Below, in pieces: positions 19,495 to 61,757 of a stretch of 64,000 bases of DNA. The stretch covers positions 62,001 through 126,000 of the forward strand of contig CAXHJY010000023.1 in the NCBI GenBank assembly GCA_964016885.1, written 5' to 3'. The notes beneath the pieces were generated by a model that was given only the letters and a program-made list of their open reading frames with translations, ran no database searches and had not been told where the DNA came from. The position numbers and the translations under genes were made by a program. How positions within the stretch are numbered: position 1 is the stretch's first letter; each line of letters starts with the position of its first letter. Origin of the DNA: Eledone cirrhosa. Taxonomy: Eukaryota.

Positions 19495-20352
19495 ATATTA
19501 GAAAGATCGAGTATCGAAAAATCGGCGCACGAGTTCACGATAAACGAAATTCGATATGAGCGGCAGAGGGCTCAATAATTCAGATGAATCAGAGCTATAA
19601 CTATCGTTAAAATACCGTCACATATAGAACAAGTCTACAATCAACCATACGATTTAAAATCGATAAAGGAAGATTCGGGCCAAACAGATAAAAAATATCA
19701 ATAAAACAATACGTCAATAATTTAAATGAATGTAAAATCATACCCGGACCCACTAGACAGGTGTTAAATCTAGCTTCATGGGTTTCTGTAAATCCTTAGA
19801 CTGTACTCTATCAGCTCACATATAAATATAAAAGCCTACTAGAGTAAGTGGAACGGAGGTTTACGTTATCAACGAGTTTTTTCCTGGCGGCAGAGGAGCC
19901 AACTACCAGTGAAAAACGCACATGGCATTAGACAAGGGAGATGACCCCTATATCCGCGAAAACAATTCGAGTGAATGTGGAAATACACATATCGAATTAG
20001 AGTGCTCAATAGACATGTTAAAATAAAACAAAAGCTATTCATCACTCAATAGAATTGACAAAAAATGAGCAATAAAATTAACTGGTGGATAGCTATGTCC
20101 AGAGCTAAATATATTAGAAAGATCGAGTATCGAAAAATCGGCGCACGAGTTCACGATAAACGAAATTCGATATGAGCGGCAGAGGGCTCAATAATTCAGA
20201 TGAATCAGAGCTATAACTATCGTTAAAATACCGTCACATATAGAACAAGTCTACAATCAACCATACGATTTAAAATCGATAAAGGAAGATTCGGGCCAAA
20301 CAGATAAAAAATATCAATAAAACAATACGTCAATAATTTAAATGAATGTAAA

Positions 20353-20358
<6 letters not shown>
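19495..20358. mobile_element. Element with ~247-bp apparently identical direct terminal repeats (period 616 bp), pLTR/LTR-like, in a TA tract
   Basis: 19495-19742 repeated at 20111-20358; non-coding interior. Confidence 0.75.
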
Positions 20359-32324: not shown

Positions 32325-32791
32325 TATCCCAGTAGGTACTAGGTACCCAAAGAAATATATATGGTGTCTATAATAGTGGTTGTTCTATGGTACTAATTTG
32401 AGATACCAGGACTGTAAATATGAGCGGAACAAGTAAACATTAAACAATCTTTTAAATAATTAAAAATACTATTTAAATATTTACCTCTTCTAGTGCCATG
32501 ACGACGGTTTCGCTTATCAAAAGATTGGAATTCAGAGAATTTCCAATGGAAGGATATAGCTATTTTATCGGCTTGATTCATTCACTGGGCAGAGGGTGAT
32601 ATATCTACATCTATACGGACTTATGTCTAGTAGATTTGGAAAACCTATCTGAAGAACTATATCTTTCATTGGAAATTCTCTGAATTTCCAATTTTTGATA
32701 AGTGAAACCGTCGGTCATGGCACTAGAAGAGGTAAATATTTAAATCGTATTTTAATTTATTTAAAAGATTGTTTAATGTTTACTTGTTCCG

Positions 32792-32798
<7 letters not shown>
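32325..32798 (-). mobile_element. Family D foldback element (arms ~32418-32560 and ~32656-32798, tail at left); HHR at 32645-32720 (+)
   Basis: ~140-bp inverted repeat; CTAT-CTGAAGA-ACT..ATTGGAAATTctctgAATTTCCAAT..AGT-GAAA-CCgtcGG-TC^ATGG. Confidence 0.8.
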
Positions 32799-32849
<51 letters not shown>

Positions 32850-34088: not shown

Positions 34089-34153
34089 ACCCACACACAC
34101 AAAGACCTATATATATATATTATATATATATATGTATATATATATGTATAAAT

Positions 34154-34482
34154 ATATTAATAAAAGGAATTCGATGTTTGTCTGATTTACTCGTTTTATT
34201 TACAATCCTTTAAAATTATAATGATATTATTATAATTGCAAACAATTTTCAACTGACTGTTGAAAATTGCAAACTTGACTGTCACCATAGAATATGAACC
34301 TGAAGATTGCGGAAGCATGAAAGAACTTGTTCACTTAACATTTAACATTTAATATTCTACCATATTATTTCATTCTAATATCATTATAATTTTAAAGGAT
34401 TGTAAATAAAACGAGTAATTCAGACAAAGTTGGAATTCCTTTTATTAATATAATATTCTATACACAATCATACACACCCGTG
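34154..34482 (+). mobile_element. Family G foldback element (arms 34154-34229 and 34376-34451); HHR-like motif at 34295-34333 (+)
   Basis: ~75-bp inverted repeat; TGAAC-CTGAAGA-tTGCggaaGCAt-GAAA-GaaC-TT^GTTCA. Confidence 0.75.
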
Positions 34483-34670
34483 TATATTTATTTATCTATC
34501 TATCTATTTTTATATTTTGTTATTGCCTCCTCCTTATTGAGGACGCCTTGTTTTGTAAACTCCCCCTTTGTACTTGTCCCACTTTTGACGCCCTGGTGGC
34601 AAATAAAAGAAACATATCTATCTGTGTGTGTGTGTGCATGCATGCATGCATATATGTATGTATGTATGTA

Positions 34671-35064
34671 TATTGTTATACTTGGGGAGGGTCATATTTG
34701 TGTAATATTGCCAGAATTAATAACAGAACACACTCACTGTTTGATTGGTTTCCGCTTCTCGCTTCTGTGTATTTTATATCGGTAATCTAACTTACTCGGT
34801 CCTCAGTGTTGCCATTGACTGACCGACGGTCAAAAATAATACAGATACAATATAGACACAAACACATATATATAGTTTATCATAAATCTTTCGTTGCACA
34901 TTTGGAACATCGTCAGTGGTGCTATATTTTCCTCCTGTTGTATTGTATGTCTACGCCATTTGTGTTCTGTTATTAATTCTGGCAATATTACACAAATATG
35001 ACCCTCCCCAAGTATAACAATATTTGTTTCGACTCACAATTTCATATAAAAAACCTCGAAATCT
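34671..35064 (+). mobile_element. Family I foldback element; degenerate HHR at 34878-34921 (-)
   Basis: 34671-34731 is inverted at 34961-35021, followed by a tail; minus strand CTGACGA-tGTT..AAC-GAAA-gatt-TA. Confidence 0.7.
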
Positions 35065-41276: not shown

Positions 41277-41883
41277 TATATTAATAAATTGAAACTATAT
41301 TTATAAAACCATATTTATTTCATTATACATATTTCAAGGACAGCGAAGCAAAGTAGGGTGCGCTTTCATCAGATAAAATATAATAGAGATAAGTTTTGTA
41401 AACTAATATTGACATACCCTTAAAAGAATGCGACCATGTCTGTTGGAAGCTCCCGGATAGTGGGATTACTAATTTTATTATTGGTCTATTATGCAAATTA
41501 GTGTCCGAGAGGTTTAAATCCCATACATTAAAATTAAGCCGTTGGAATAGGGAAAAAATGAAAAGGAGAAAGAAAGAGCAGACCAATAATAAAATTAGTA
41601 ACCCCACTATCCGAGAGCTTCCAACAGACATGGTCGCATTCTTTTAAGGGTATGTCAATATTTGTTTATAAAACTGATCCCTATTATATTTTATCTGATG
41701 AAAGCGCACCATCATTTGCTTTGGTGTCCTTGAAATATATATAATGAAATAAATATGGTTTTATAAATATAGTTTCCATTTATTAATATATTGTATTTTT
41801 ACTCCAAAAATGTGTTGAGTGCTTTATATCAGTTATTAAAATATTTGCTTGTTACATCCCAACAAATTAAATATAACTTCTAC
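41276..41883 (+). mobile_element. Family B foldback element (arms ~41277-41487 and ~41580-41790, tail ~90 nt); HHRs at 41316-41380 (-) and 41687-41751 (+)
   Basis: ~210-bp inverted repeat; TATTTTAT-CTGATGA-AAGcGCACCA..TGGTGTcCTT-GAAA-TATATA-TA^ATGAAATA. Confidence 0.85.
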
Positions 41884-41902: not shown

Positions 41903-43409
41903 AACGCATACGCGGACCTCTCAACATTCGTTGGATTTTCTGATTGTATACTACCCAGGGAGCTGAGAGAAGGCACAATATGCCCTATACATAAAGGAGG
42001 TAGCAGAGCGGAGGCCAAAAACTATAGGCCAGTCTCCCTGACTTCGCATATCAGTAAGGTCATGGAGCGAGTTGTCAGAAAGAAACTGATCACTTTCCTC
42101 GAGGAAAATGACCGCCTGACTAGCACGCAGCATGGGTACTGAAACAACTAATAGACAGCTCACATGTAGACGTGATGTATCTTGACTTTGCGAAGGCCTT
42201 TGACAAAGTCGACCACGGAATGATATGTCACAAACTACACGGACTCGGCATGACTGGAAAAGTAGGTGAGTGGCTGCATGACTTCTTAAAGGACAGAAGC
42301 CAAACAGTCGCAGCAAACGGGGCCCTCACAAAGGAAACATTAATAACAAGTGGTGTGCCCCAAGGGACAGTCCTGGAACCACTACTGTTTTTGGTGGCTC
42401 TCTCCGACATGCCCTCTGTAGTACATACAACAACATCCCTCACTAGCTATGGTGATGAGACTAAGGTAGCACAGAAATCAGAAACCCGGCTGACGCTACC
42501 CTTTTACAACAAGATCTGGATGCTATATACAAATGGTCAGAAGAAAACAACATCCAGTTTAATGCTGGCAATTTCCAAGCCCTACAATACAAAGCTGCAA
42601 ACGCAAATACAGTACAACACAGTTACGCAGGACCAGGAGGGACGGTTATCCCCGTGTCAAAATCGGTACGTGACCTGGGTATAGACATGAGCGATGATGC
42701 ATCTTTTTCCTCACACATCATGAAAGTGCAGACGACTCGCTGGCTGGATGTTGAGGACTTTCCGGACAAGAGACCGTGACACCATGTTGACACTATGGAG
42801 GACAGTTGTCCTAAGCCGCCTGGACTATTGCTTCCAGTTGTGGTCACCCCATAGTATCAAACTTGAGGAAATCCAACGAAGCTACACCAAGAAGATTGCC
42901 ACGATGAAGGAGATAAGCTACTGCGAGAGGCTAAACGAACTGAAACTCTACTCCTTGGAAGGAAGACGGGAGAGATACGCAGTGATCTACATGTGGAAAA
43001 TCCTGGAGGTACTAGCACCAAACTTTGGCATTGGTAACTGGACCAACCGTCGAGCAGGTATCACTGTGTGGTGCCAAATGTCCTGTCTTCCACATCTAGA
43101 ATAAGGAGCAGATACTGTAATAGCCTGGGATTCAAGGGCCCTCAATTCGTCAACAAGCTGCCGAGGGATCTGAGAGATCTGCATGGTGTGGAGGTGAATG
43201 TCTTCAAGAAATATCTCGACACCTTGCTATCCAGTATCCCGGATGATCCCACAGCAAGTCATGAGGGAAATCTAAGGGCAGCAGCAACAAATTCCCTCTT
43301 ACACCAGTGGCCAACCTATACAGGCTGGAGATAAAATGTGTAGCAACAAGGGCGGGGCCCCAGCATGGCCACAGTCGGATAGCTGGAGCAGGTAAAGAGT
43401 AAAAGAGTA
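41903..43409 (+). pseudogene. 5'-truncated, disrupted CR1/L2-group non-LTR retrotransposon (RT domain and 3' end)
   Basis: Motifs PIHKGG..KNYRPVSLTS, QHGY, YLDFAKAFDKVDH, SGVPQGTVLEPLLF, YGDETK (decayed YADD), RLDYCFQLWSP, IQRSYTKKI across several frames; ends in an (AAAGAGT)-type tail. Confidence 0.9.
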
Positions 43410-44161: not shown

Positions 44162-47969
<3,808 letters not shown>

Positions 47970-48165
47970 GTTTTAATATAGATGAGATTCTACAGGACTA
48001 GAACTGTTTCATTCATAAGAAATCATCAGGAATCTGGGTATGAAAAAATAAATATGGTATTTATAGGTCTCTACAAGTGGTAGGAGAGGGTGGGGAGTGG
48101 GATGGGTGCAGGTCATTGGTTGATAGAAAAGGGAATTCATTAAAAGCTAATTCTACAAAGCTATC

Positions 48166-48210
<45 letters not shown>

Positions 48211-48223
48211 ATGTGTGTGTGTG

Positions 48224-48262
<39 letters not shown>

Positions 48263-49065
48263 GTATTATATATGTATGTATGTATGTGTGTATGTATGTG
48301 TGTGTACATGAATATATATTTATATATATTTATATATTTTTATATATGTGTGTGTGTTTTTATGTGTGTATATGTGTTTGTGTGTGTGTTTATGGTTGCG
48401 CGTAAGTGTGTGAGTGAGTATGTGTTTTTTTGTTTTTTTGTTTTTTTGTTTTTTTGTTTTTTTGTGAATGTGCCTGTTGATTTTTGGCATATAGTTGATT
48501 AGTTTAAGAGAAGTTCGAAGATAATAGTAAGATATGCACTCAGTATTTTGAATCTGTCTGCAGAATTCTCTAGACCTTTGTCACTTAGTAGAACCTTAAT
48601 GACTTTAGCTTTTAAAGAATCTCCCTTTTCTTTAATTCTAACGACCATGACTGACCCCCCACTGATTTTATAGACACCTGTTAGCTTAAGAGAAACTTAT
48701 TGACAGGGAATGGTATGCCATCCGGAACCTGTTTATAGAATTCTGTCTGCCTTTGTTACTCTAAAAACATAAATAAATATAAATCAAAATAAAAATAAAT
48801 TATAGCTTTGTAGAATTAGCTTTTAATGAATTCCCTTTTCTATGAACCAATGACCTGCACCCATCCCACTCCCCACCCTCTGCTACCACTTGTAGAGACC
48901 TATAAATACCATATTTATTTTTTGATACCCAGATTCCTGATGATTTCTTATGAATGAAACAGTTCTAGTCCTGTAGAATCTCATCTATATTAAAACTGTT
49001 ATACTCTGCTATGTATTGAGTACCTTACTTACTGTGGTTACCTCCGTTTCAACCCGGAATAACGT
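47970..49065 (+). mobile_element. Longest family A element (arms 47970-48164 and 48802-48996, tail to 49065); HHRs at 47985-48035 (-) and 48931-48981 (+)
   Basis: ~195-bp inverted repeat; AGATTC-CTGATGA-tTTCttatGAAt-GAAA-CAGttctagtcCTG-TA^GAATCT. Confidence 0.88.
48847..48908 (+). promoter_or_regulatory. Putative Pol II promoter in the family A repeat (CCAAT, CACCC boxes, TATAAATA)
   Basis: CCAAT at 48847, C-rich CACCC tract, TATAAATA at 48901, 30 nt before HHR stem I; motif match only. Confidence 0.35.
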
Positions 49066-49076
49066 ATATATACATA

Positions 49077-49184
<108 letters not shown>

Positions 49185-49189
49185 TATAC

Positions 49190-49232
<43 letters not shown>

Positions 49233-49237
49233 TATAC

Positions 49238-49280
<43 letters not shown>

Positions 49281-49303
49281 TATACATATATATACATATA
49301 TAT

Positions 49304-52300
49304 ATAAAAACAAATAACGAAACGAAATTAAATTTCGTTTCGTTTGTAACTCACTTTTGTATGACTGACGCTTAAACAATTAAGTTAAAAATGTACATCC
49401 ACATATGTATACTGAAATACTAGTATGCATATGAATACACACACGTGTACATATGTAGATGTACCGAGTTTTCACTGGTCACTTTACTGTGAGTGTCCAG
49501 CTATTCTGTATGTAGACACACAGACAAACCGGTTCTTAGAGTCATACTGGTTTTTGAGGAAACACCTTTCCTCTATTCTCCAGAAAGCCAGACAAGGAAT
49601 ATTGGACTAGTTTCGATGTTGTTACATCTCATCAGCAATATTTACCTATCTTCCGGCTTCTCTAGAGAATCGTGAAAGCACATATCGTTATATGCTTTTT
49701 CTATGAAAATTAGTAGTGGGCAGACCAATTTGCATAGAGCGTGAGTACGTACCGGTTCAACGGAGACGATAAAAACAAATAACGAAACGAAATTAAATTT
49801 CGTTTCGTTTGTAACTCACTTTTGTATGACTGACGCTTAAACAATTAAGTTAAAAATGTACATCCACATATGTATACTGAAATACTAGTATGCATATGAA
49901 TACACACACGTGTACATATGTAGATGTACCGAGTTTTCACTGGTCACTTTACTGTGAGTGTCCAGCTATTCTGTATGTAGACACACAGACAAACCGGTTC
50001 TTAGAGTCATACTGGTTTTTGAGGAAACACCTTTCCTCTATTCTCCAGAAAGCCAGACAAGGAATATTGGACTAGTTTCGATGTTGTTACATCTCATCAG
50101 CAATATTTACCTATCTTCCGGCTTCTCTAGAGAATCGTGAAAGCACATATCGTTATATGCTTTTTCTATGAAAATTAGTAGTGGGCAGACCAATTTGCAT
50201 AGAGCGTGAGTACGTACCGGTTCAACGGAGACGATAAAAACAAATAACGAAACGAAATTAAATTTCGTTTCGTTTGTAACTCACTTTTGTATGACTGACG
50301 CTTAAACAATTAAGTTAAAAATGTACATCCACATATGTATACTGAAATACTAGTATGCATATGAATACACACACGTGTACATATGTAGATGTACCGAGTT
50401 TTCACTGGTCACTTTACTGTGAGTGTCCAGCTATTCTGTATGTAGACACACAGACAAACCGGTTCTTAGAGTCATACTGGTTTTTGAGGAAACACCTTTC
50501 CTCTATTCTCCAGAAAGCCAGACAAGGAATATTGGACTAGTTTCGATGTTGTTACATCTCATCAGCAATATTTACCTATCTTCCGGCTTCTCTAGAGAAT
50601 CGTGAAAGCACATATCGTTATATGCTTTTTCTATGAAAATTAGTAGTGGGCAGACCAATTTGCATAGAGCGTGAGTACGTACCGGTTCAACGGAGACGAT
50701 AAAAACAAATAACGAAACGAAATTAAATTTCGTTTCGTTTGTAACTCACTTTTGTATGACTGACGCTTAAACAATTAAGTTAAAAATGTACATCCACATA
50801 TGTATACTGAAATACTAGTATGCATATGAATACACACACGTGTACATATGTAGATGTACCGAGTTTTCACTGGTCACTTTACTGTGAGTGTCCAGCTATT
50901 CTGTATGTAGACACACAGACAAACCGGTTCTTAGAGTCATACTGGTTTTTGAGGAAACACCTTTCCTCTATTCTCCAGAAAGCCAGACAAGGAATATTGG
51001 ACTAGTTTCGATGTTGTTACATCTCATCAGCAATATTTACCTATCTTCCGGCTTCTCTAGAGAATCGTGAAAGCACATATCGTTATATGCTTTTTCTATG
51101 AAAATTAGTAGTGGGCAGACCAATTTGCATAGAGCGTGAGTACGTACCGGTTCAACGGAGACGATAAAAACAAATAACGAAACGAAATTAAATTTCGTTT
51201 CGTTTGTAACTCACTTTTGTATGACTGACGCTTAAACAATTGAGTTAAAAATGTACATCCACATATGTATACTGAAATACTAGTATGCATATGAATACAC
51301 ACACGTGTACATATGTAGATGTACCGAGTTTTCACTGGTCACTTTACTGTGAGTGTCCAGCTATTCTGTATGTAGACACACAGACAAACCGGTTCTTAGA
51401 GTCATACTGGTTTTTGAGGAAACACCTTTCCTCTATTCTCCAGAAAGCCAGACAAGGAATATTGGACTAGTTTCGATGTTGTTACATCTCATCAGCAATA
51501 TTTACCTATCTTCCGGCTTCTCTAGAGAATCGTGAAAGCACATATCGTTATATGCTTTTTCTATGAAAATTAGTAGTGGGCAGACCAATTTGCATAGAGC
51601 GTGAGTACGTACCGGTTCAACGGAGACGATAAAAACAAATAACGAAACGAAATTAAATTTCGTTTCGTTTGTAACTCACTTTTGTATGACTGACGCTTAA
51701 ACAATTAAGTTAAAAATGTACATCCACATATGTATACTGAAATACTAGTATGCATATGAATACACACACGTGTACATATGTAGATGTACCGAGTTTTCAC
51801 TGGTCACTTTACTGTGAGTGTCCAGCTATTCTGTATGTAGACACACAGACAAACCGGTTCTTAGAGTCATACTGGTTTTTGAGGAAACACCTTTCCTCTA
51901 TTCTCCAGAAAGCCAGACAAGGAATATTGGACTAGTTTCGATGTTGTTACATCTCATCAGCAATATTTACCTATCTTCCGGCTTCTCTAGAGAATCGTGA
52001 AAGCACATATCGTTATATGCTTTTTCTATGAAAATTAGTAGTGGGCAGACCAATTTGCATAGAGCGTGAGTACGTACCGTTTCAACGGAGACGATAAAAA
52101 CAAATAACGAAACGAAATTAAATTTCGTTTCGTTTGTAACTCACTTTTGTATGACTGACGCTTAAACAATTAAGTTAAAAATGTACATCCACATATGTAT
52201 ACTGAAATACTAGTATGCATATGAATACACACACGTGTACATATGTAGATGTACCGAGTTTTCACTGGTCACTTTACTGTGAGTGTCCAGCTATTCTGTA

Positions 52301-55300
52301 TGTAGACACACAGACAAACCGGTTCTTAGAGTCATACTGGTTTTTGAGGAAACACCTTTCCTCTATTCTCCAGAAAGCCAGACAAGGAATATTGGACTAG
52401 TTTCGATGTTGTTACATCTCATCAGCAATATTTACCTATCTTCCGGCTTCTCTAGAGAATCGTGAAAGCACATATCGTTATATGCTTTTTCTATGAAAAT
52501 TAGTAGTGGGCAGACTAATTTGCATAGAGCGTGAGTACGTACCGGTTCAACGGAGACGATAAAAACAAATAACGAAACGAAATTAAATTTCGTTTCGTTT
52601 GTAACTCACTTTTGTATGACTGACGCTTAAACAATTAAGTTAAAAATGTACATCCACATATGTATACTGAAATACTAGTATGCATATGAATACACACACG
52701 TGTACATATGTAGATGTACCGAGTTTTCACTGGTCACTTTACTGTGAGTGTCCAGCTATTCTGTATGTAGACACACAGACAAACCGGTTCTTAGAGTCAT
52801 ACTGGTTTTTGAGGAAACACCTTTCCTCTATTCTCCAGAAAGCCAGACAAGGAATATTGGACTAGTTTCGATGTTGTTACATCTCATCAGCAATATTTAC
52901 CTATCTTCCGGCTTCTCTAGAGAATCGTGAAAGCACATATCGTTATATGCTTTTTCTATGAAAATTAGTAGTGGGCAGACCAATTTGCATAGAGCGTGAG
53001 TACGTACCGGTTCAACGGAGACGATAAAAACAAATAACGAAACGAAATTAAATTTCGTTTCGTTTGTAACTCACTTTTGTATGACTGACGCTTAAACAAT
53101 TAAGTTAAAAATGTACATCCACATATGTATACTGAAATACTAGTATGCATATGAATACACACACGTGTACATATGTAGATGTACCGAGTTTTCACTGGTC
53201 ACTTTACTGTGAGTGTCCAGCTATTCTGTATGTAGACACACAGACAAACCGGTTCTTAGAGTCATACTGGTTTTTGAGGAAACACCTTTCCTCTATTCTC
53301 CAGAAAGCCAGACAAGGAATATTGGACTAGTTTCGATGTTGTTACATCTCATCAGCAATATTTACCTATCTTCCGGCTTCTCTAGAGAATCGTGAAAGCA
53401 CATATCGTTATATGCTTTTTCTATGAAAATTAGTAGTGGGCAGACCAATTTGCATAGAGCGTGAGTACGTACCGGTTCAACGGAGACGATAAAAACAAAT
53501 AACGAAACGAAATTAAATTTCGTTTCGTTTGTAACTCACTTTTGTATGACTGACGCTTAAACAATTAAGTTAAAAATGTACATCCACATATGTATACTGA
53601 AATACTAGTATGCATATGAATACACACACGTGTACATATGTAGATGTACCGAGTTTTCACTGGTCACTTTACTGTGAGTGTCCAGCTATTCTGTATGTAG
53701 ACACACAGACAAACCGGTTCTTAGAGTCATACTGGTTTTTGAGGAAACACCTTTCCTCTATTCTCCAGAAAGCCAAACAAGGAATATTGGACTAGTTTCG
53801 ATGTTGTTACATCTCATCAGCAATATTTACCTATCTTCCGGCTTCTCTAGAGAATCGTGAAAGCACATATCGTTATATGCTTTTTCTATGAAAATTAGTA
53901 GTGGGCAGACTAATTTGCATAGAGCGTGAGTACGTACCGGTTCAACGGAGACGATAAAAACAAATAACGAAACGAAATTAAATTTCGTTTCGTTTGTAAC
54001 TCACTTTTGTATGACTGACGCTTAAACAATTAAGTTAAAAATGTACATCCACATATGTATACTGAAATACTAGTATGCATATGAATACACACACGTGTAC
54101 ATATGTAGATGTACCGAGTTTTCACTGGTCACTTTACTGTGAGTGTCCAGCTATTCTGTATGTAGACACACAGACAAACCGGTTCTTAGAGTCATACTGG
54201 TTTTTGAGGAAACACCTTTCCTCTATTCTCCAGAAAGCCAGACAAGGAATATTGGACTAGTTTCGATGTTGTTACATCTCATCAGCAATATTTACCTATC
54301 TTCCGGCTTCTCTAGAGAATCGTGAAAGCACATATCGTTATATGCTTTTTCTATGAAAATTAGTAGTGGGCAGACCAATTTGCATAGAGCGTGAGTACGT
54401 ACCGGTTCAACGGAGTCGATAAAAACAAATAACGAAACGAAATTAAATTTCGTTTCGTTTGTAACTCACTTTTGTATGACTGACGCTTAAACAATTAAGT
54501 TAAAAATGTACATCCACATATGTATACTGAAATACTAGTATGCATATGAATACACACACGTGTACATATGTAGATGTACCGAGTTTTCACTGGTCACTTT
54601 ACTGTGAGTGTCCAGCTATTCTGTATGTAGACACACAGACAAACCGGTTCTTAGAGTCATACTGGTTTTTGAGGAAACACCTTTCCTCTATTCTCCAGAA
54701 AGCCAGACAAGGAATATTGGACTAGTTTCGATGTTGTTACATCTCATCAGCAATATTTACCTATCTTCCGGCTTCTCTAGAGAATCGTGAAAGCACATAT
54801 CGTTATATGCTTTTTCTATGAAAATTAGTAGTAGGCAGACCAATTTGCATAGAGCGTGAGTACGTACCGGTTCAACGGAGACGATAAAAACAAATAACGA
54901 AACGAAATTAAATTTCGTTTCGTTTGTAACTCACTTTTGTATGACTGACGCTTAAACAATTAAGTTAAAAATGTACATCCACATATGTATACTGAAATAC
55001 TAGTATGCATATGAATACACACACGTGTACATATGTAGATGTACCGAGTTTTCACTGGTCACTTTACTGTGAGTGTCCAGCTATTCTGTATGTAGACACA
55101 CAGACAAACCGGTTCTTAGAGTCATACTGGTTTTTGAGGAAACACCTTTCCTCTATTCTCCAGAAAGCCAGACAAGGAATATTGGACTAGTTTCGATGTT
55201 GTTACATCTCATCAGCAATATTTACCTATCTTCCGGCTTCTCTAGAGAATCGTGAAAGCACATATCGTTATATGCTTTTTCTATGAAAATTAGTAGTGGG

Positions 55301-57668
55301 CAGACCAATTTGCATAGAGCGTGAGTACGTACCGGTTCAACGGAGACGATAAAAACAAATAACGAAACGAAATTAAATTTCGTTTCGTTTGTAACTCACT
55401 TTTGTATGACTGACGCTTAAACAATTAAGTTAAAAATGTACATCCACATATGTATACTGAAATACTAGTATGCATATGAATACACACACGTGTACATATG
55501 TAGATGTACCGAGTTTTCACTGGTCACTTTACTGTGAGTGTCCAGCTATTCTGTATGTAGACACACAGACAAACCGGTTCTTAGAGTCATACTGGTTTTT
55601 GAGGAAACACCTTTCCTCTATTCTCCAGAAAGCCAGACAAGGAATATTGGACTAGTTTCGATCTTGTTACATCTCATCAGCAATATTTACCTATCTTCCG
55701 GCTTCTCTAGAGAATCGTGAAAGCACATATCGTTATATGCTTTTTCTATGAAAATTAGTAGTGGGCAGACTAATTTGCATAGAGCGTGAGTACGTACCGG
55801 TTCAACGGAGACGATAAAAACAAATAACGAAACGAAATTAAATTTCGTTTCGTTTGTAACTCACTTTTGTATGACTGACGCTTAAACAATTAAGTTAAAA
55901 ATGTACATCCACATATGTATACTGAAATACTAGTATGCATATGAATACACACACGTGTACATATGTAGATGTACCGAGTTTTCACTGGTCACTTTACTGT
56001 GAGTGTCCAGCTATTCTGTATGTAGACACACAGACAAACCGGTTCTTAGAGTCATACTGGTTTTTGAGGAAACACCTTTCCTCTATTCACCAGAAAGCCA
56101 GACAAGGAATATTGGACTAGTTTCGATGTTGTTACATCTCATCAGCAATATTTACCTATCTTCCGGCTTCTCTAGAGAATCGTGAAAGCACATATCGTTA
56201 TATGCTTTTTCTATGAAAATTAGTAGTGGGCAGACCAATTTGCATAGAGCGTGAGTACGTACCGGTTCAACGGAGACGATAAAAACAAATAACGAAACGA
56301 AATTAAATTTCGTTTCGTTTGTAACTCACTTTTGTATGACTGACGCTTAAACAATTAAGTTAAAAATGTACATCCACATATGTATACTGAAATACTAGTA
56401 TGCATATGAATACACACACGTGTACATATGTAGATGTACCGAGTTTTCACTGGTCACTTTACTGTGAGTGTCCAGCTATTCTGTATGTAGACACACAGAC
56501 AAACCGGTTCTTAGAGTCATACTGGTTTTTGAGGAAACACCTTTCCTCTATTCTCCAGAAAGCCAGACAAGGAATATTGGACTAGTTTCGATGTTGTTAC
56601 ATCTCATCAGCAATATTTACCTATCTTCCGGCTTCTCTAGAGAATCGTGAAAGCACATATCGTTATATGCTTTTTCTATGAAAATTAGTAGTGGGCAGAC
56701 CAATTTGCATAGAGCGTGAGTACGTACCGGTTCAACGGAGACGATAAAAACAAATAACGAAACGAAATTAAATTTCGTTTCGTTTGTAACTCACTTTTGT
56801 ATGACTGACGCTTAAACAATTAAGTTAAAAATGTACATCCACATATGTATACTGAAATACTAGTATGCATATGAATACACACACGTGTACATATGTAGAT
56901 GTACCGAGTTTTCACTGGTCACTTTACTGTGAGTGTCCAGCTATTCTGTATGTAGACACACAGACAAACCGGTTCTTAGAGTCATACTGGTTTTTGAGGA
57001 AACACCTTTCCTCTATTCTCCAGAAAGCCAGACAAGGAATATTGGACTAGTTTCGATGTTGTTACATCTCATCAGCAATATTTACCTATCTTCCGGCTTC
57101 TCTAGAGAATCGTGAAAGCACATATCGTTATATGCTTTTTCTATGAAAATTAGTAGTGGGCAGACCAATTTGCATAGAGCGTGAGTACGTACCGGTTCAA
57201 CGGAGACGATAAAAACAAATAACGAAACGAAATTAAATTTCGTTTCGTTTGTAACTCACTTTTGTATGACTGACGCTTAAACAATTAAGTTAAAAATGTA
57301 CATCCACATATGTATACTGAAATACTAGTATGCATATGAATACACACACGTGTACATATGTAGATGTACCGAGTTTTCACTGGTCACTTTACTGTGAGTG
57401 TCCAGCTATTCTGTATGTAGACACACAGACAAACCGGTTCTTAGAGTCATACTGGTTTTTGAGGAAACACCTTTCCTCTATTCTCCAGAAAGCCAGACAA
57501 GGAATATTGGACTAGTTTCGATGTTGTTACATCTCATCAGCAATATTTACCTATCTTCCGGCTTCTCTAGAGAATCGTGAAAGCACATATCGTTATATGC
57601 TTTTTCTATGAAAATTAGTAGTGGGCAGACCAATTTGCATAGAGCGTGAGTACGTACCGGTTCAACGG
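49304..57668 (-). repeat. 18 head-to-tail copies of a 465-bp HHR-containing unit (family H); last copy 5 nt short
   Basis: Exact 465-bp period (ORF track starts 49425...57330); about 10 substitutions seen and no indels. Confidence 0.98.
49598..49642 (-). ncRNA. Minimal type I hammerhead ribozyme, first of 18 (repeats every 465 bp)
   Basis: Minus strand: AATATTG-CTGATGA-GATGTaacaACATC-GAAA-CTAG-TC^CAATATT; 7-bp stem I, 5-bp stem II, canonical core, GUC triplet. Confidence 0.9.
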
Positions 57669-58107
57669 TCGAAACTAGTCCAATATTCCTTGTCTGGCTT
57701 TCTGGAGAATAGAGGAAAGGTGTTTCCTCAAAAACCAGTATGACTCTAAGAACCGGTTTGTCTGTGTGTCTACATACAGAATAGCTGGACACTCACAGTA
57801 AAGTGACCAGTGAAAACTCGGTACATCTACATATGTACACGTGTGTGTATTCATATGCATACTAGTATTTCAGTATACATATGTGGATGTACATTTTTAA
57901 CTTAATTGTTTAAGCGTCAGTCATACAAAAGTGAGTTACAAACGAAACGAAATTTAATTTCGTTTCGTTATTTGTTTTTATCGTCTCCGTTGAACCGGTA
58001 CGTACTCACGCTCTATGCAAATTGGTCTGCCCACTACTAATTTTCATAGAAAAAGCATATAACGATATGTGCTTTCACGATTCTCTAGAGAAGCCGGAAG
58101 ATAGGTA

Positions 58108-58152
58108 AATATTGCTGATGAGATGTAACAACATCGAAACTAGTCCAATATT
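58108..58152 (+). ncRNA. Same hammerhead in the inverted arm (predicted cleavage after 58145)
   Basis: AATATTGCTGATGAGATGTAACAACATCGAAACTAGTCCAATATT read directly. Confidence 0.9.
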
Positions 58153-58376
58153 CCTTGTCTGGCTTTCTGGAGAATAGAGGAAAGGTGTTTCCTCAAAAAC
58201 CAGTATGACTCTAAGAACCGGTTTGTCTGTGTGTCTACATACAGAATAGCTGGACACTCACAGTAAAGTGACCAGTGAAAACTCGGTACATCTACATATG
58301 TACACGTGTGTGTATTCATATGCATACTAGTATTTCAGTATACATATGTGGATGTACATTTTTAACTTAATTGTTC

Positions 58377-58407
<31 letters not shown>

Positions 58408-58443
58408 TATACATATATATACATATATATACATATATATACA

Positions 58444-58485
<42 letters not shown>

Positions 58486-58496
58486 CATATATATAC

Positions 58497-58529
<33 letters not shown>

Positions 58530-58606
58530 CATAAACATATATATATATATATATATACATATATATACATAAACATATATATATATATATATATACATAT
58601 ATATAC

Positions 58607-58695
<89 letters not shown>

Positions 58696-58700
58696 TATAC

Positions 58701-58807
<107 letters not shown>

Positions 58808-58808
58808 C

Positions 58809-58856
<48 letters not shown>

Positions 58857-58865
58857 ACATATATA

Positions 58866-59291
58866 TGTAGGAGGTGAGTTTTATTGTAGTACAATAAAGC
58901 AATGCAGATATCGGATAAGAAGCACTCTACAATTTGTAGGACTGGAGAATACATAATATAAGATCAAAAGATGGTTAAAGGAGTTCCATGTATTTTATTA
59001 TGCGCATTTCAAAAACAAACATCATCATGCAATAATATTTGTGTTTTCATCAGATAAAACAGGAGAACATGATATGAAGGCTAAAAAACACATGTGGATA
59101 GTGCAGTTGATAGTGCAGATAGATATGTTGATTTAAAACTGCACTATCCACAAGTGTTTTTTAGCCTTCATATCATGTTCTCCTGTTTTATCTGATGAAA
59201 ACACAAATATTATTGCATGATGATGTTTGTTTTTGAAATGCGCATAATAAAATACATGGAACTCCTTTAACCATCTTTTTATCTTATATTA
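58866..59291 (-). mobile_element. Family C full foldback element; HHRs at 58991-59061 (-) and 59184-59254 (+)
   Basis: ~155-bp inverted repeat 58954-59109 / ~59137-59291 plus ~88-nt tail; palindromic TGCGCA stem III. Confidence 0.88.
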
Positions 59292-59569
59292 TACATATAT
59301 ATATATATTTATATAAACATATATATATATATATATAAACATATATATACATATATTTATATAAACATATATATATAGAAACATATATATATATATAAAC
59401 ATATATATATATATATATATACATATATATACATACATATATACACACATTAATTAACACGTTGATATTTGTCTGTATTATTCCGGGCGAATTGAAAAAG
59501 AAAGATAGCCAAAATATCTAAAACGAGCGGTCAATATAAATGACATTTTATTACACGGATTCTACAAAA

Positions 59570-61317: not shown

Positions 61318-61361
<44 letters not shown>

Positions 61362-61596
61362 GCACACATATATATATGTACGTATGGATTCACCGAACAT
61401 TTATTATAATGCTCGGCGTGTTTGTAAACAAACATCCCTTATTAAGCCGTAGTGTCCAGCAACCATCGTTGCTCGTTTGTTCAACACTGACAAAGGAACG
61501 CTGTACTAGTTTCAAGCTTATTAGGTATCGTCAGCAACGTATACCTTCCTGCCAGATTGTTGAACGTATATACTTACATTATGCACATTAACGGCT

Positions 61597-61740
61597 GAGT
61601 AGCTCAATTTGCATATCGAGTGGATTAATCGGCCGGGTGCACCGAAAACGATAAACGCAAAAAATGAAACCAAATTTCATTTCCCACACCTAACCGATTA
61701 ACCCCCGATTAACCCACTCGATATGCAAATTGGGCTACTC
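61597..61740. mobile_element. MITE-like foldback with 36-bp terminal inverted repeats
   Basis: GAGTAGCTCAATTTGCATATCGAGTGGATTAATCGG / CCGATTAACCCACTCGATATGCAAATTGGGCTACTC (2 mismatches); interior resembles the reverse complement of 18328-18398. Confidence 0.7.
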
Positions 61741-61757
61741 AAATTGGGCTAATATAT

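Follow-up and report, generated by a model that had tools for sequence, protein, structure and literature searches.

How does an array of 18 near-identical repeats come to end in an exact inversion of itself? This question is raised by a 64,000-nucleotide stretch of the Eledone cirrhosa genome (GCA_964016885.1, contig CAXHJY010000023.1, positions 62,001 to 126,000 of the forward strand; the window), which holds a 9-kb block of 465-bp units that carry hammerhead ribozyme motifs. This block is one copy of a dispersed, protein-free hammerhead repeat with two fixed ends and a variable inversion point. We consider it probable that it was inserted in a single event by the enzyme of a Penelope-like element (PLE), which would have primed two complementary DNAs (cDNAs) from both ends of a broken (TA)n tract, with a 465-nt RNA, probably a circle, as their template.

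The block is made of a long tandem arm and a short inverted arm, both bordered by TA-rich runs (Table 1). The tandem array is 8,365 nt long with a period of 465, and it breaks off at unit position 460. From the next base onward the sequence is an exact reverse complement that begins TC-GAAACTAGTC, the 3' strand of hammerhead stem II, and runs from unit position 313 down to 72, so that the junction is a blunt fusion of position 460 to position 313. The inverted arm crosses one unit boundary and stops at the equivalent of 49375. A sequence-only reading had described the flip, an inverted arm of about 1.5 units beginning in stem II, its end point and the TA repeats on both flanks; all of these hold, the flip to the base. 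It had also called 49304-49374 unpaired, which holds for the 71-nt tail at the terminus; the tail sequence itself recurs once inside the inverted arm. The head-to-head junction sequence occurs only once in the assembly. The right flank is single-copy there and no empty allele was found, and a target-site duplication is unreadable within TA repeats. The inverted arm is identical to the array consensus, and the units of the array differ by seven singletons and by a variant base at position 423 that units 7, 10 and 14 have in common. Position 423 is also a variant site in other otherwise identical young arrays (L045, L031). The variant base is common in other subfamilies, and its recurrence could reflect a reverse transcriptase (RT) error hotspot, template switching or conversion.

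We examined the nature of the repeat unit. A type I hammerhead motif is present in every unit, 18 on the minus strand and one in the inverted arm. An Rfam scan of the block gave no match at the gathering level; the hammerhead of the inverted arm scored 38.9 bits against Hammerhead_HH9 (E 1.8e-8), short of that model's gathering score, which is 52. The 465-nt unit folds far more stably than its shuffles (z -9.9), and a compensated pair in stem II distinguishes two large subfamilies (31 and 30 loci). The block lacks long terminal repeats (LTRs) and protein-coding sequence, with no open reading frame (ORF) of at least 120 aa and no RT and GIY-YIG ORF, and no ORF continuous with the unit was found in the parsed loci. 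The hammerhead, the non-coding character and the dispersal fit a non-LTR retrozyme with predicted self-cleavage. Metazoan non-LTR retrozymes (PMC7229834) are likewise protein-free tandems, from dimers up to large multimers, with one type I hammerhead per unit, low GC and strong folding, but their units measure about 170-400 nt rather than 465. RNA circles were demonstrated in that system, whereas the circle proposed here is deduced from DNA. The same paper proposes a circular-RNA template and a PLE helper and terms PLEs strong candidates only; the word 'inverted' is absent from its main text, whereas we mapped termini and inversions. Runs X3, X5 and X7 (three studies, kind unrecorded) each yielded one closed-loop contig of 465, 466 or 467 nt, a loop that tandem DNA would equally give. 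These loops show a single haplotype at low depth, the picture in X1 and X8 is fragmented, and the run holders carry many organism labels; no RNA run is among those listed, and runs with small word shares are excluded.

We compared the window block with copies elsewhere in the genome. The tail 34-mer has 8,377 exact matches across the 3.0 Gb of the genome (G000), and TA is joined to unit position 1 at 1,940 exact junctions. TA joined to the second, short end gave 540 matches on the reverse strand and 1,367 on the forward strand, the latter count being inflated by overlapping matches, and TA joined to the predicted ribozyme cut gave 6 against 5 for a control. The parsed set consisted of the window and 139 other stretches: 20 picked by similarity, 20 that are the first 34-mer places on C1, 79 chosen for a tail end and 20 for a short end. 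In these last two sets one end is given by the choice itself, and it is the opposite end that serves as the test. We dropped L087 as a duplicate of L086, and four of 105 elements that were cut by a stretch edge were left out of the end counts.

Two-armed elements in the 140 stretches were all head-to-head (105) and never tail-to-tail. In 91 of the 101 complete copies, one arm stopped at a tail end between positions 1 and 7 and the other at a short end between 69 and 78; two short ends never occurred together, two tail ends did so once, and nine copies, mostly interrupted, had other ends. Loci picked by similarity alone ended at position 1-2 on the tail side in 19 of 20 cases. For loci picked by the short end, the far end was the tail in 15 of 20 (12 by program, two tiny arms by eye and one through the overlapping L098). 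TA targets lie at the flanks of parsed copies, and the period varies by locus from 465 to 470. The expectation of fixed ends with variable inversion points was thus borne out, with ends at unit position 1 and 69-78. The retrozyme copies display the features of PLE-type insertions: an inverted, 5'-truncated head-to-head copy, a tail at one end and a (TA)n target.

The lengths of the two arms indicate how they were made. Complete elements outside the similarity-picked set number 85. The lengths of their two arms show no correlation (rho 0.03), with medians of 540 and 451 nt, and in 26 elements each arm is longer than one unit. In 35 of the 85 the inverted arm surpasses its partner in length, which argues against its being a copy of the completed tail arm. 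The ribozyme cut is crossed by the tail arm in 67 elements and by the inverted arm in 61. The two arms thus behave like cDNAs that ended independently of each other, each of them joined to a TA end of its own, and the strict pairing of tail and short end implies that the two starts are coordinated, as by a dimer. The arms meet at 1-8 nt of overlap in 53 of 103 junctions, bluntly in 15, through filler in 33 and with longer overlap in two. By eye, arms had seemed to stop at the ribozyme cut more often than elsewhere, but the counts do not bear this out: 1 of 206 ends falls within 3 nt of the cut, against 2.7 expected. At L229:870-934, 65 nt of GC-rich foreign sequence without an Rfam match separate two arms, each of which stops at unit position 288.

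Penelope elements with the same layout are present in this genome. An autonomous family, PLE-A, has a 4,117-bp unit and an intact 1,217-aa RT/GIY-YIG ORF. Its protein has Atlas look-alikes for RT, GIY-YIG and HTH_animal at 0.96-0.98; a Pfam search of the ORF gave no match, and PDB sequences gave weak RT matches only. All 15 head-to-head PLE-A copies with both ends in view have a short end (506-513) and a long end (556-572) that finish in TA, and PLE-A copies have variable junctions and arms of up to 2.45 units. The family (L146-L165, e.g. G000:C1:307336000-307352900) is very young, with many identical copies, a long asparagine-rich insert, a hammerhead-like core in its pseudo-LTR (pLTR) and inverted arms that extend deep into the ORF; besides the remnant in Table 1, the window holds one at 17653-17745.

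Families A, B and C of the window had been read as a class of small elements with this layout. The layout is indeed shared, with short and long ends 60-90 nt apart (A 155-163 and 244; B 143-153 and 231; C 185-202 and about 263). The class dissolves: family A follows a PLE ORF in L092 and L106, B follows one in L091 and C runs into one in L065. The three families are truncated termini of autonomous Hydra-type PLEs, and the CxCX5C linker of their ORFs agrees with the account of the Hydra clade in PMC8557442. For one PLE protein here, the closest named relative comes from Octopus vulgaris (69%). At least five PLE families of this genome have a common target and layout.

A sister retrozyme family, R2, extends the comparison. 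R2 and the 465-bp unit are identical in 295 of 482 aligned columns (score 358 versus 161 +/- 10 for shuffles), and R2 ends at two places homologous to the termini of the 465-bp unit, with a tail of about 50 nt. A pattern search for related hammerheads returned R2 only, with 1,680 matches against 14 for the control. R2 also occurs at window 18266-18398 and in L152, L163 and L166-L195, with at least 1,680 hammerhead matches for one subfamily. The cut and the short end lie 229 nt apart in the 465-bp unit, 223 in R2, 222 in PLE-A, 157 in A2, a relative of PLE-A, and 33-59 in families A, B and C, which gives a weak hint of a Neptune-like partner, the clade being named by motif. The tail folds of seven families showed no obvious common structure.

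Table 1. Coordinates of the retrozyme block and related elements in the window
Feature	Position	Strand	Remark
(TA)n target, left flank	49065..49303	.	
Tail arm, 17.99 tandem 465-bp retrozyme units	49304..57668	-	ribozyme sense is the minus strand
71-nt tail, span between the two fixed termini	49304..49374	-	unit positions 1 and 69-78, putative RT starts
Predicted 13-bp hairpin within the tail	49316..49344	-	ends 12 nt short of the terminus
First of 18 type I hammerhead motifs	49595..49647	-	predicted cut after GUC between 49605/49604 (unit 302/301)
Head-to-head inversion junction	57668..57669	.	
Inverted arm, 707 nt, 1.52 units	57669..58375	+	ends at unit position 72
Complete hammerhead of the inverted arm	58097..58168	+	Rfam Hammerhead_HH9
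(TA)n target, right flank	58377..58866	.	
Family A, head-to-head termini pair of a Hydra-type PLE	58867..59292	.	long end left, short end right
Family C	47969..49064	.	short-end arm 47969-48164, tail arm 48802-49064; continues into PLE ORF in L065
Family B	9478..9902	.	also 41278-41879; joined to PLE ORF in L091
Small head-to-head remnant of PLE-A	34670..35058	.	
Sister retrozyme family R2, 434-bp unit	61337..61741	.	

These comparisons bear on the claim that the block derives from one insertion made by PLE machinery. The ends, the inversions and the PLE-A layout support a link between the array and PLE retrotransposition in one insertion, with PLE machinery as the probable agent. An autonomous PLE carrying the unit, which the sequence-only reading had proposed to look for, was absent from the sampled PLE loci, and the 465-bp unit showed no similarity to the 3' regions of PLE-A, A2, Hydra-type or Poseidon-like elements. 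Because no PLE bearing the unit was found, the attribution to PLE machinery draws on shared architecture and target; because no pLTR or 3' sequence is shared in the sampled PLE loci, we did not file the 465-bp element under any PLE family. Retrozyme tail arms stand head-to-head with truncated PLE pieces of four families at L031:9340, L053:4439, L075:1860 and L106:5504, in each case without TA. The piece at L106 stops where the short end of its own PLE lies, and a 144-nt RTE fragment separates it from the retrozyme arm. No further joins of this kind appeared in 40 additional loci, and the four could equally be explained by later insertion and deletion.

We propose the following cycle. Arrays would be transcribed, cut by their ribozymes and ligated into monomer circles. 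A PLE RT/GIY-YIG protein acting in trans would cut both strands of a (TA)n tract. One DNA end would then prime at position 1 of the RNA, immediately 3' of the hairpin in the tail, and the other about 70 nt upstream (69-78). Each RT would circle the template for a random length, passing the ligated cut site, and the two cDNA 3' ends would be joined through short microhomology or filler into the head-to-head junction. Some arrays would gain or lose units locally afterwards. The two arms could come from one RNA molecule or from two identical ones. A more ambitious version, to which we give somewhat less than an even chance, has a Penelope dimer seated on one circular ribozyme RNA at two sites ~70 nt apart, where it copies in a double rolling-circle mode from both ends of one (TA)n break; satellite-like arrays as long as 9 kb would then arise in a single step. 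The passenger would be known by RNA shape and not by sequence, and the same cycle would explain the tail, inversion and tandems of PLEs generally.

Parts of this cycle have precedents. Circles were proposed as templates for PLE copies of more than unit length (PMC4209133). In vitro, the Anolis Poseidon element PAc cuts and extends both target strands, starts reverse transcription at two internal sites that bound the tail, needs little primer homology and is predicted to dimerize (PMC11167929), all of which it shares with the scheme proposed here. That assay used autonomous RNA and linear templates, and strict two-site pairing and rolling-circle copying lie outside it. Canonical endonuclease-positive PLE insertions (PMC8557442, PMC3846280) have the head-to-head inverted 5'-truncated copy, the tail at one end, the (TA)n bias and partial tandems, and their layout also occurs here in PLE-A and in families A, B and C. 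The retrozyme block differs from them in its longer tail (70 nt versus 30-40), its lack of an ORF, its up to 20 units and its two multimeric arms. Non-autonomous Chlamys PLEs such as MRC1 are comparable passengers with multicopy head-to-tail insertions, but as a rule their 3' sequence recurs in an autonomous family, and Chlamys elements are mostly devoid of hammerheads (PMC8557442), the reverse of the 465-bp retrozyme.

The variants that distinguish loci are informative about the template. We compared arm haplotypes among loci other than L038, L051, L052 and L068, for arm pairs that share at least 150 positions. The partner arm was unbeaten as the closest arm in 45 of 56 loci and within the top 5% in 55 of 56, at a median difference of 0.3% versus 4.1%. 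Private variants are fixed across all units of both arms (7/7 in L039, 12/12 in L041). L062 has 19.7 units with zero internal differences, yet differs by 0.65% from the nearest sampled locus, and L122 (7.9 units) and L089 are likewise homogeneous and distinct. Such locus-fixed variants suggest that each insertion passed through a monomer bottleneck, for which a circle is the simplest candidate. The earlier suggestion that the template was already multimeric or circular is upheld by the multimeric arms and by the locus-fixed variants across both arms, which favour a monomer circle.

Several points weigh against this account. No unit sequence shared with an autonomous PLE was found in 20 PLE-A loci, 24 stretches behind PLE ORFs and 30 R2 loci, a sample of the genome. 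Older arrays (L063, L125, L117, L098) have variants common to subsets of units, which shows later local duplication or conversion, and the window array carries one variant in three non-adjacent units. The transcript of a young homogeneous array would equally yield identical units. Ribozyme cleavage was dispensable in vitro (PMC11167929), and the Xenopus preprint reports cleavage in one of nine dimers (10.64898/2026.07.22.740005).

The points on cleavage lend themselves to the view that the two-ended PLE insertion was the same and its template an uncut linear multimeric transcript of a parent array. The absence of any pause or end at the cut site fits uncut RNA equally well, eight of the nine Xenopus dimers were uncleaved, and the circle in our system is putative. 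We regard this template as unlikely. Linear copying alone only shortens arrays and cannot fix new variants in all units, whereas many loci have their own fixed haplotype in both arms and their own period between 465 and 470; the ribozyme structure is also conserved with compensation. At an individual locus, an unsampled homogeneous parent array could still account for the pattern. A multimeric circle would be marked by periodic variants, which were not clear in the arrays examined.

Arrays might instead have grown later by unequal exchange from a short PLE-type insertion of about one unit plus an inverted arm, as the 2026 preprint holds for retrozyme arrays. The subset-shared, locally periodic variants of older arrays agree with such growth, as do the modest median arm lengths, since most copies are short. 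We give growth of this kind little credence, because the youngest loci, which are identical to the family consensus, already have 7-19 units that diverge from one another by 0-0.1%, mostly through singletons. In 26 of 85 elements neither arm is limited to one unit, and the 4.1-kb PLE-A also exceeds its unit length. Reshaping after insertion did occur in some older arrays, so not all 18 window units need date from the insertion; in L063, L125, L098 and L117, variant blocks recur every 2-6 units, a record of local duplication after insertion.

Another system could move the unit, with the likeness to PLEs being convergent. Long interspersed nuclear elements (LINEs), such as RTE, which is common here, and DNA transposons are candidates. 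LINE twin priming also creates 5' inversions, a PLE partner bearing the unit was not found in the sampled loci, and the L106 junction contains an RTE fragment. We consider this very improbable. The counts of TA joined to the cut give no sign of priming from a ribozyme-made 3' end, there is no tail repeat, two fixed internal start sites are always paired, and the unequal ends and variable arms are unlike terminal inverted repeats, while the PLE families here share target and layout.

A fold-back origin of the inversion, either because one cDNA or antisense RNA primed itself, a route suggested for PLEs in PMC3846280, or as a palindromic assembly or read chimera, is hardly credible: a few symmetric junctions do lie on unit hairpins or palindromes (L039, L074, L079, L121), but junctions within 10 nt of symmetric are no more frequent than by permutation (6/103 versus 5.4, p 0.46; median offset 99 nt), the window junction fuses position 460 with position 313, a fixed second end abuts TA, and public contigs contain head-to-head joints at other positions, one of them in both X1 and X4. 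Fold-back is already largely refuted for the family, and the window locus itself is judged from the assembly alone; none of the contigs (rather than raw reads) listed from runs X1, X2, X3 and X4 bridges 57668/57669, with 917 more pieces outside that listing, which speaks neither for nor against the junction.

Links between retrozymes and Penelope elements have been proposed before, and the insertion-level evidence is the new part within the literature searched. Li, Clavereau and Pollet (bioRxiv 2026, 10.64898/2026.07.22.740005) used Xenopus data, namely co-occurrence and pLTR homology, to argue that retrozymes derive from PLEs as non-autonomous elements. There, arrays are credited to local amplification, whereas young arrays here look born multimeric; our link is insertion architecture, and pLTR homology was not found in the sampled loci. 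In the literature searched, which lay outside subscription journals and supplements, we found no paper mapping retrozyme termini and inversions, and the accessible text of PMC8490949 held nothing relevant.

These results address two open questions: who moves animal retrozymes, and why Penelope insertions have a tail and an inverted copy. The genome offers about 2,000 natural integration products, some mutually identical and hence very recent, beside intact PLE ORFs. The exact nucleotides of the two start sites make the circular-template, two-ended priming model testable in the existing in vitro assay. Some satellite-like arrays may arise at insertion and not by unequal crossing-over alone, and a 465-nt cis element may let a PLE enzyme write multimeric cargo into DNA.

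Other elements were noted in the window and the sampled loci. Two more TA-inserted inverted-repeat elements with hammerhead-like cores, probably ends of other PLE families, lie at window 32415-32801 and 34153-34452. A further TA-inserted family, also abundant, is present at L107:961-1060 and in many loci; its head-to-head junction is palindromic, and its tail is similar to that of family C. An intact RTE-type LINE (endonuclease, RT, PHD) interrupts one retrozyme copy at L051:4288-7407, and the window has a broken RT of another LINE at 42124-43101. Window 19499-19742 and 20115-20358 form an exact 244-bp direct duplication between long TA tracts.
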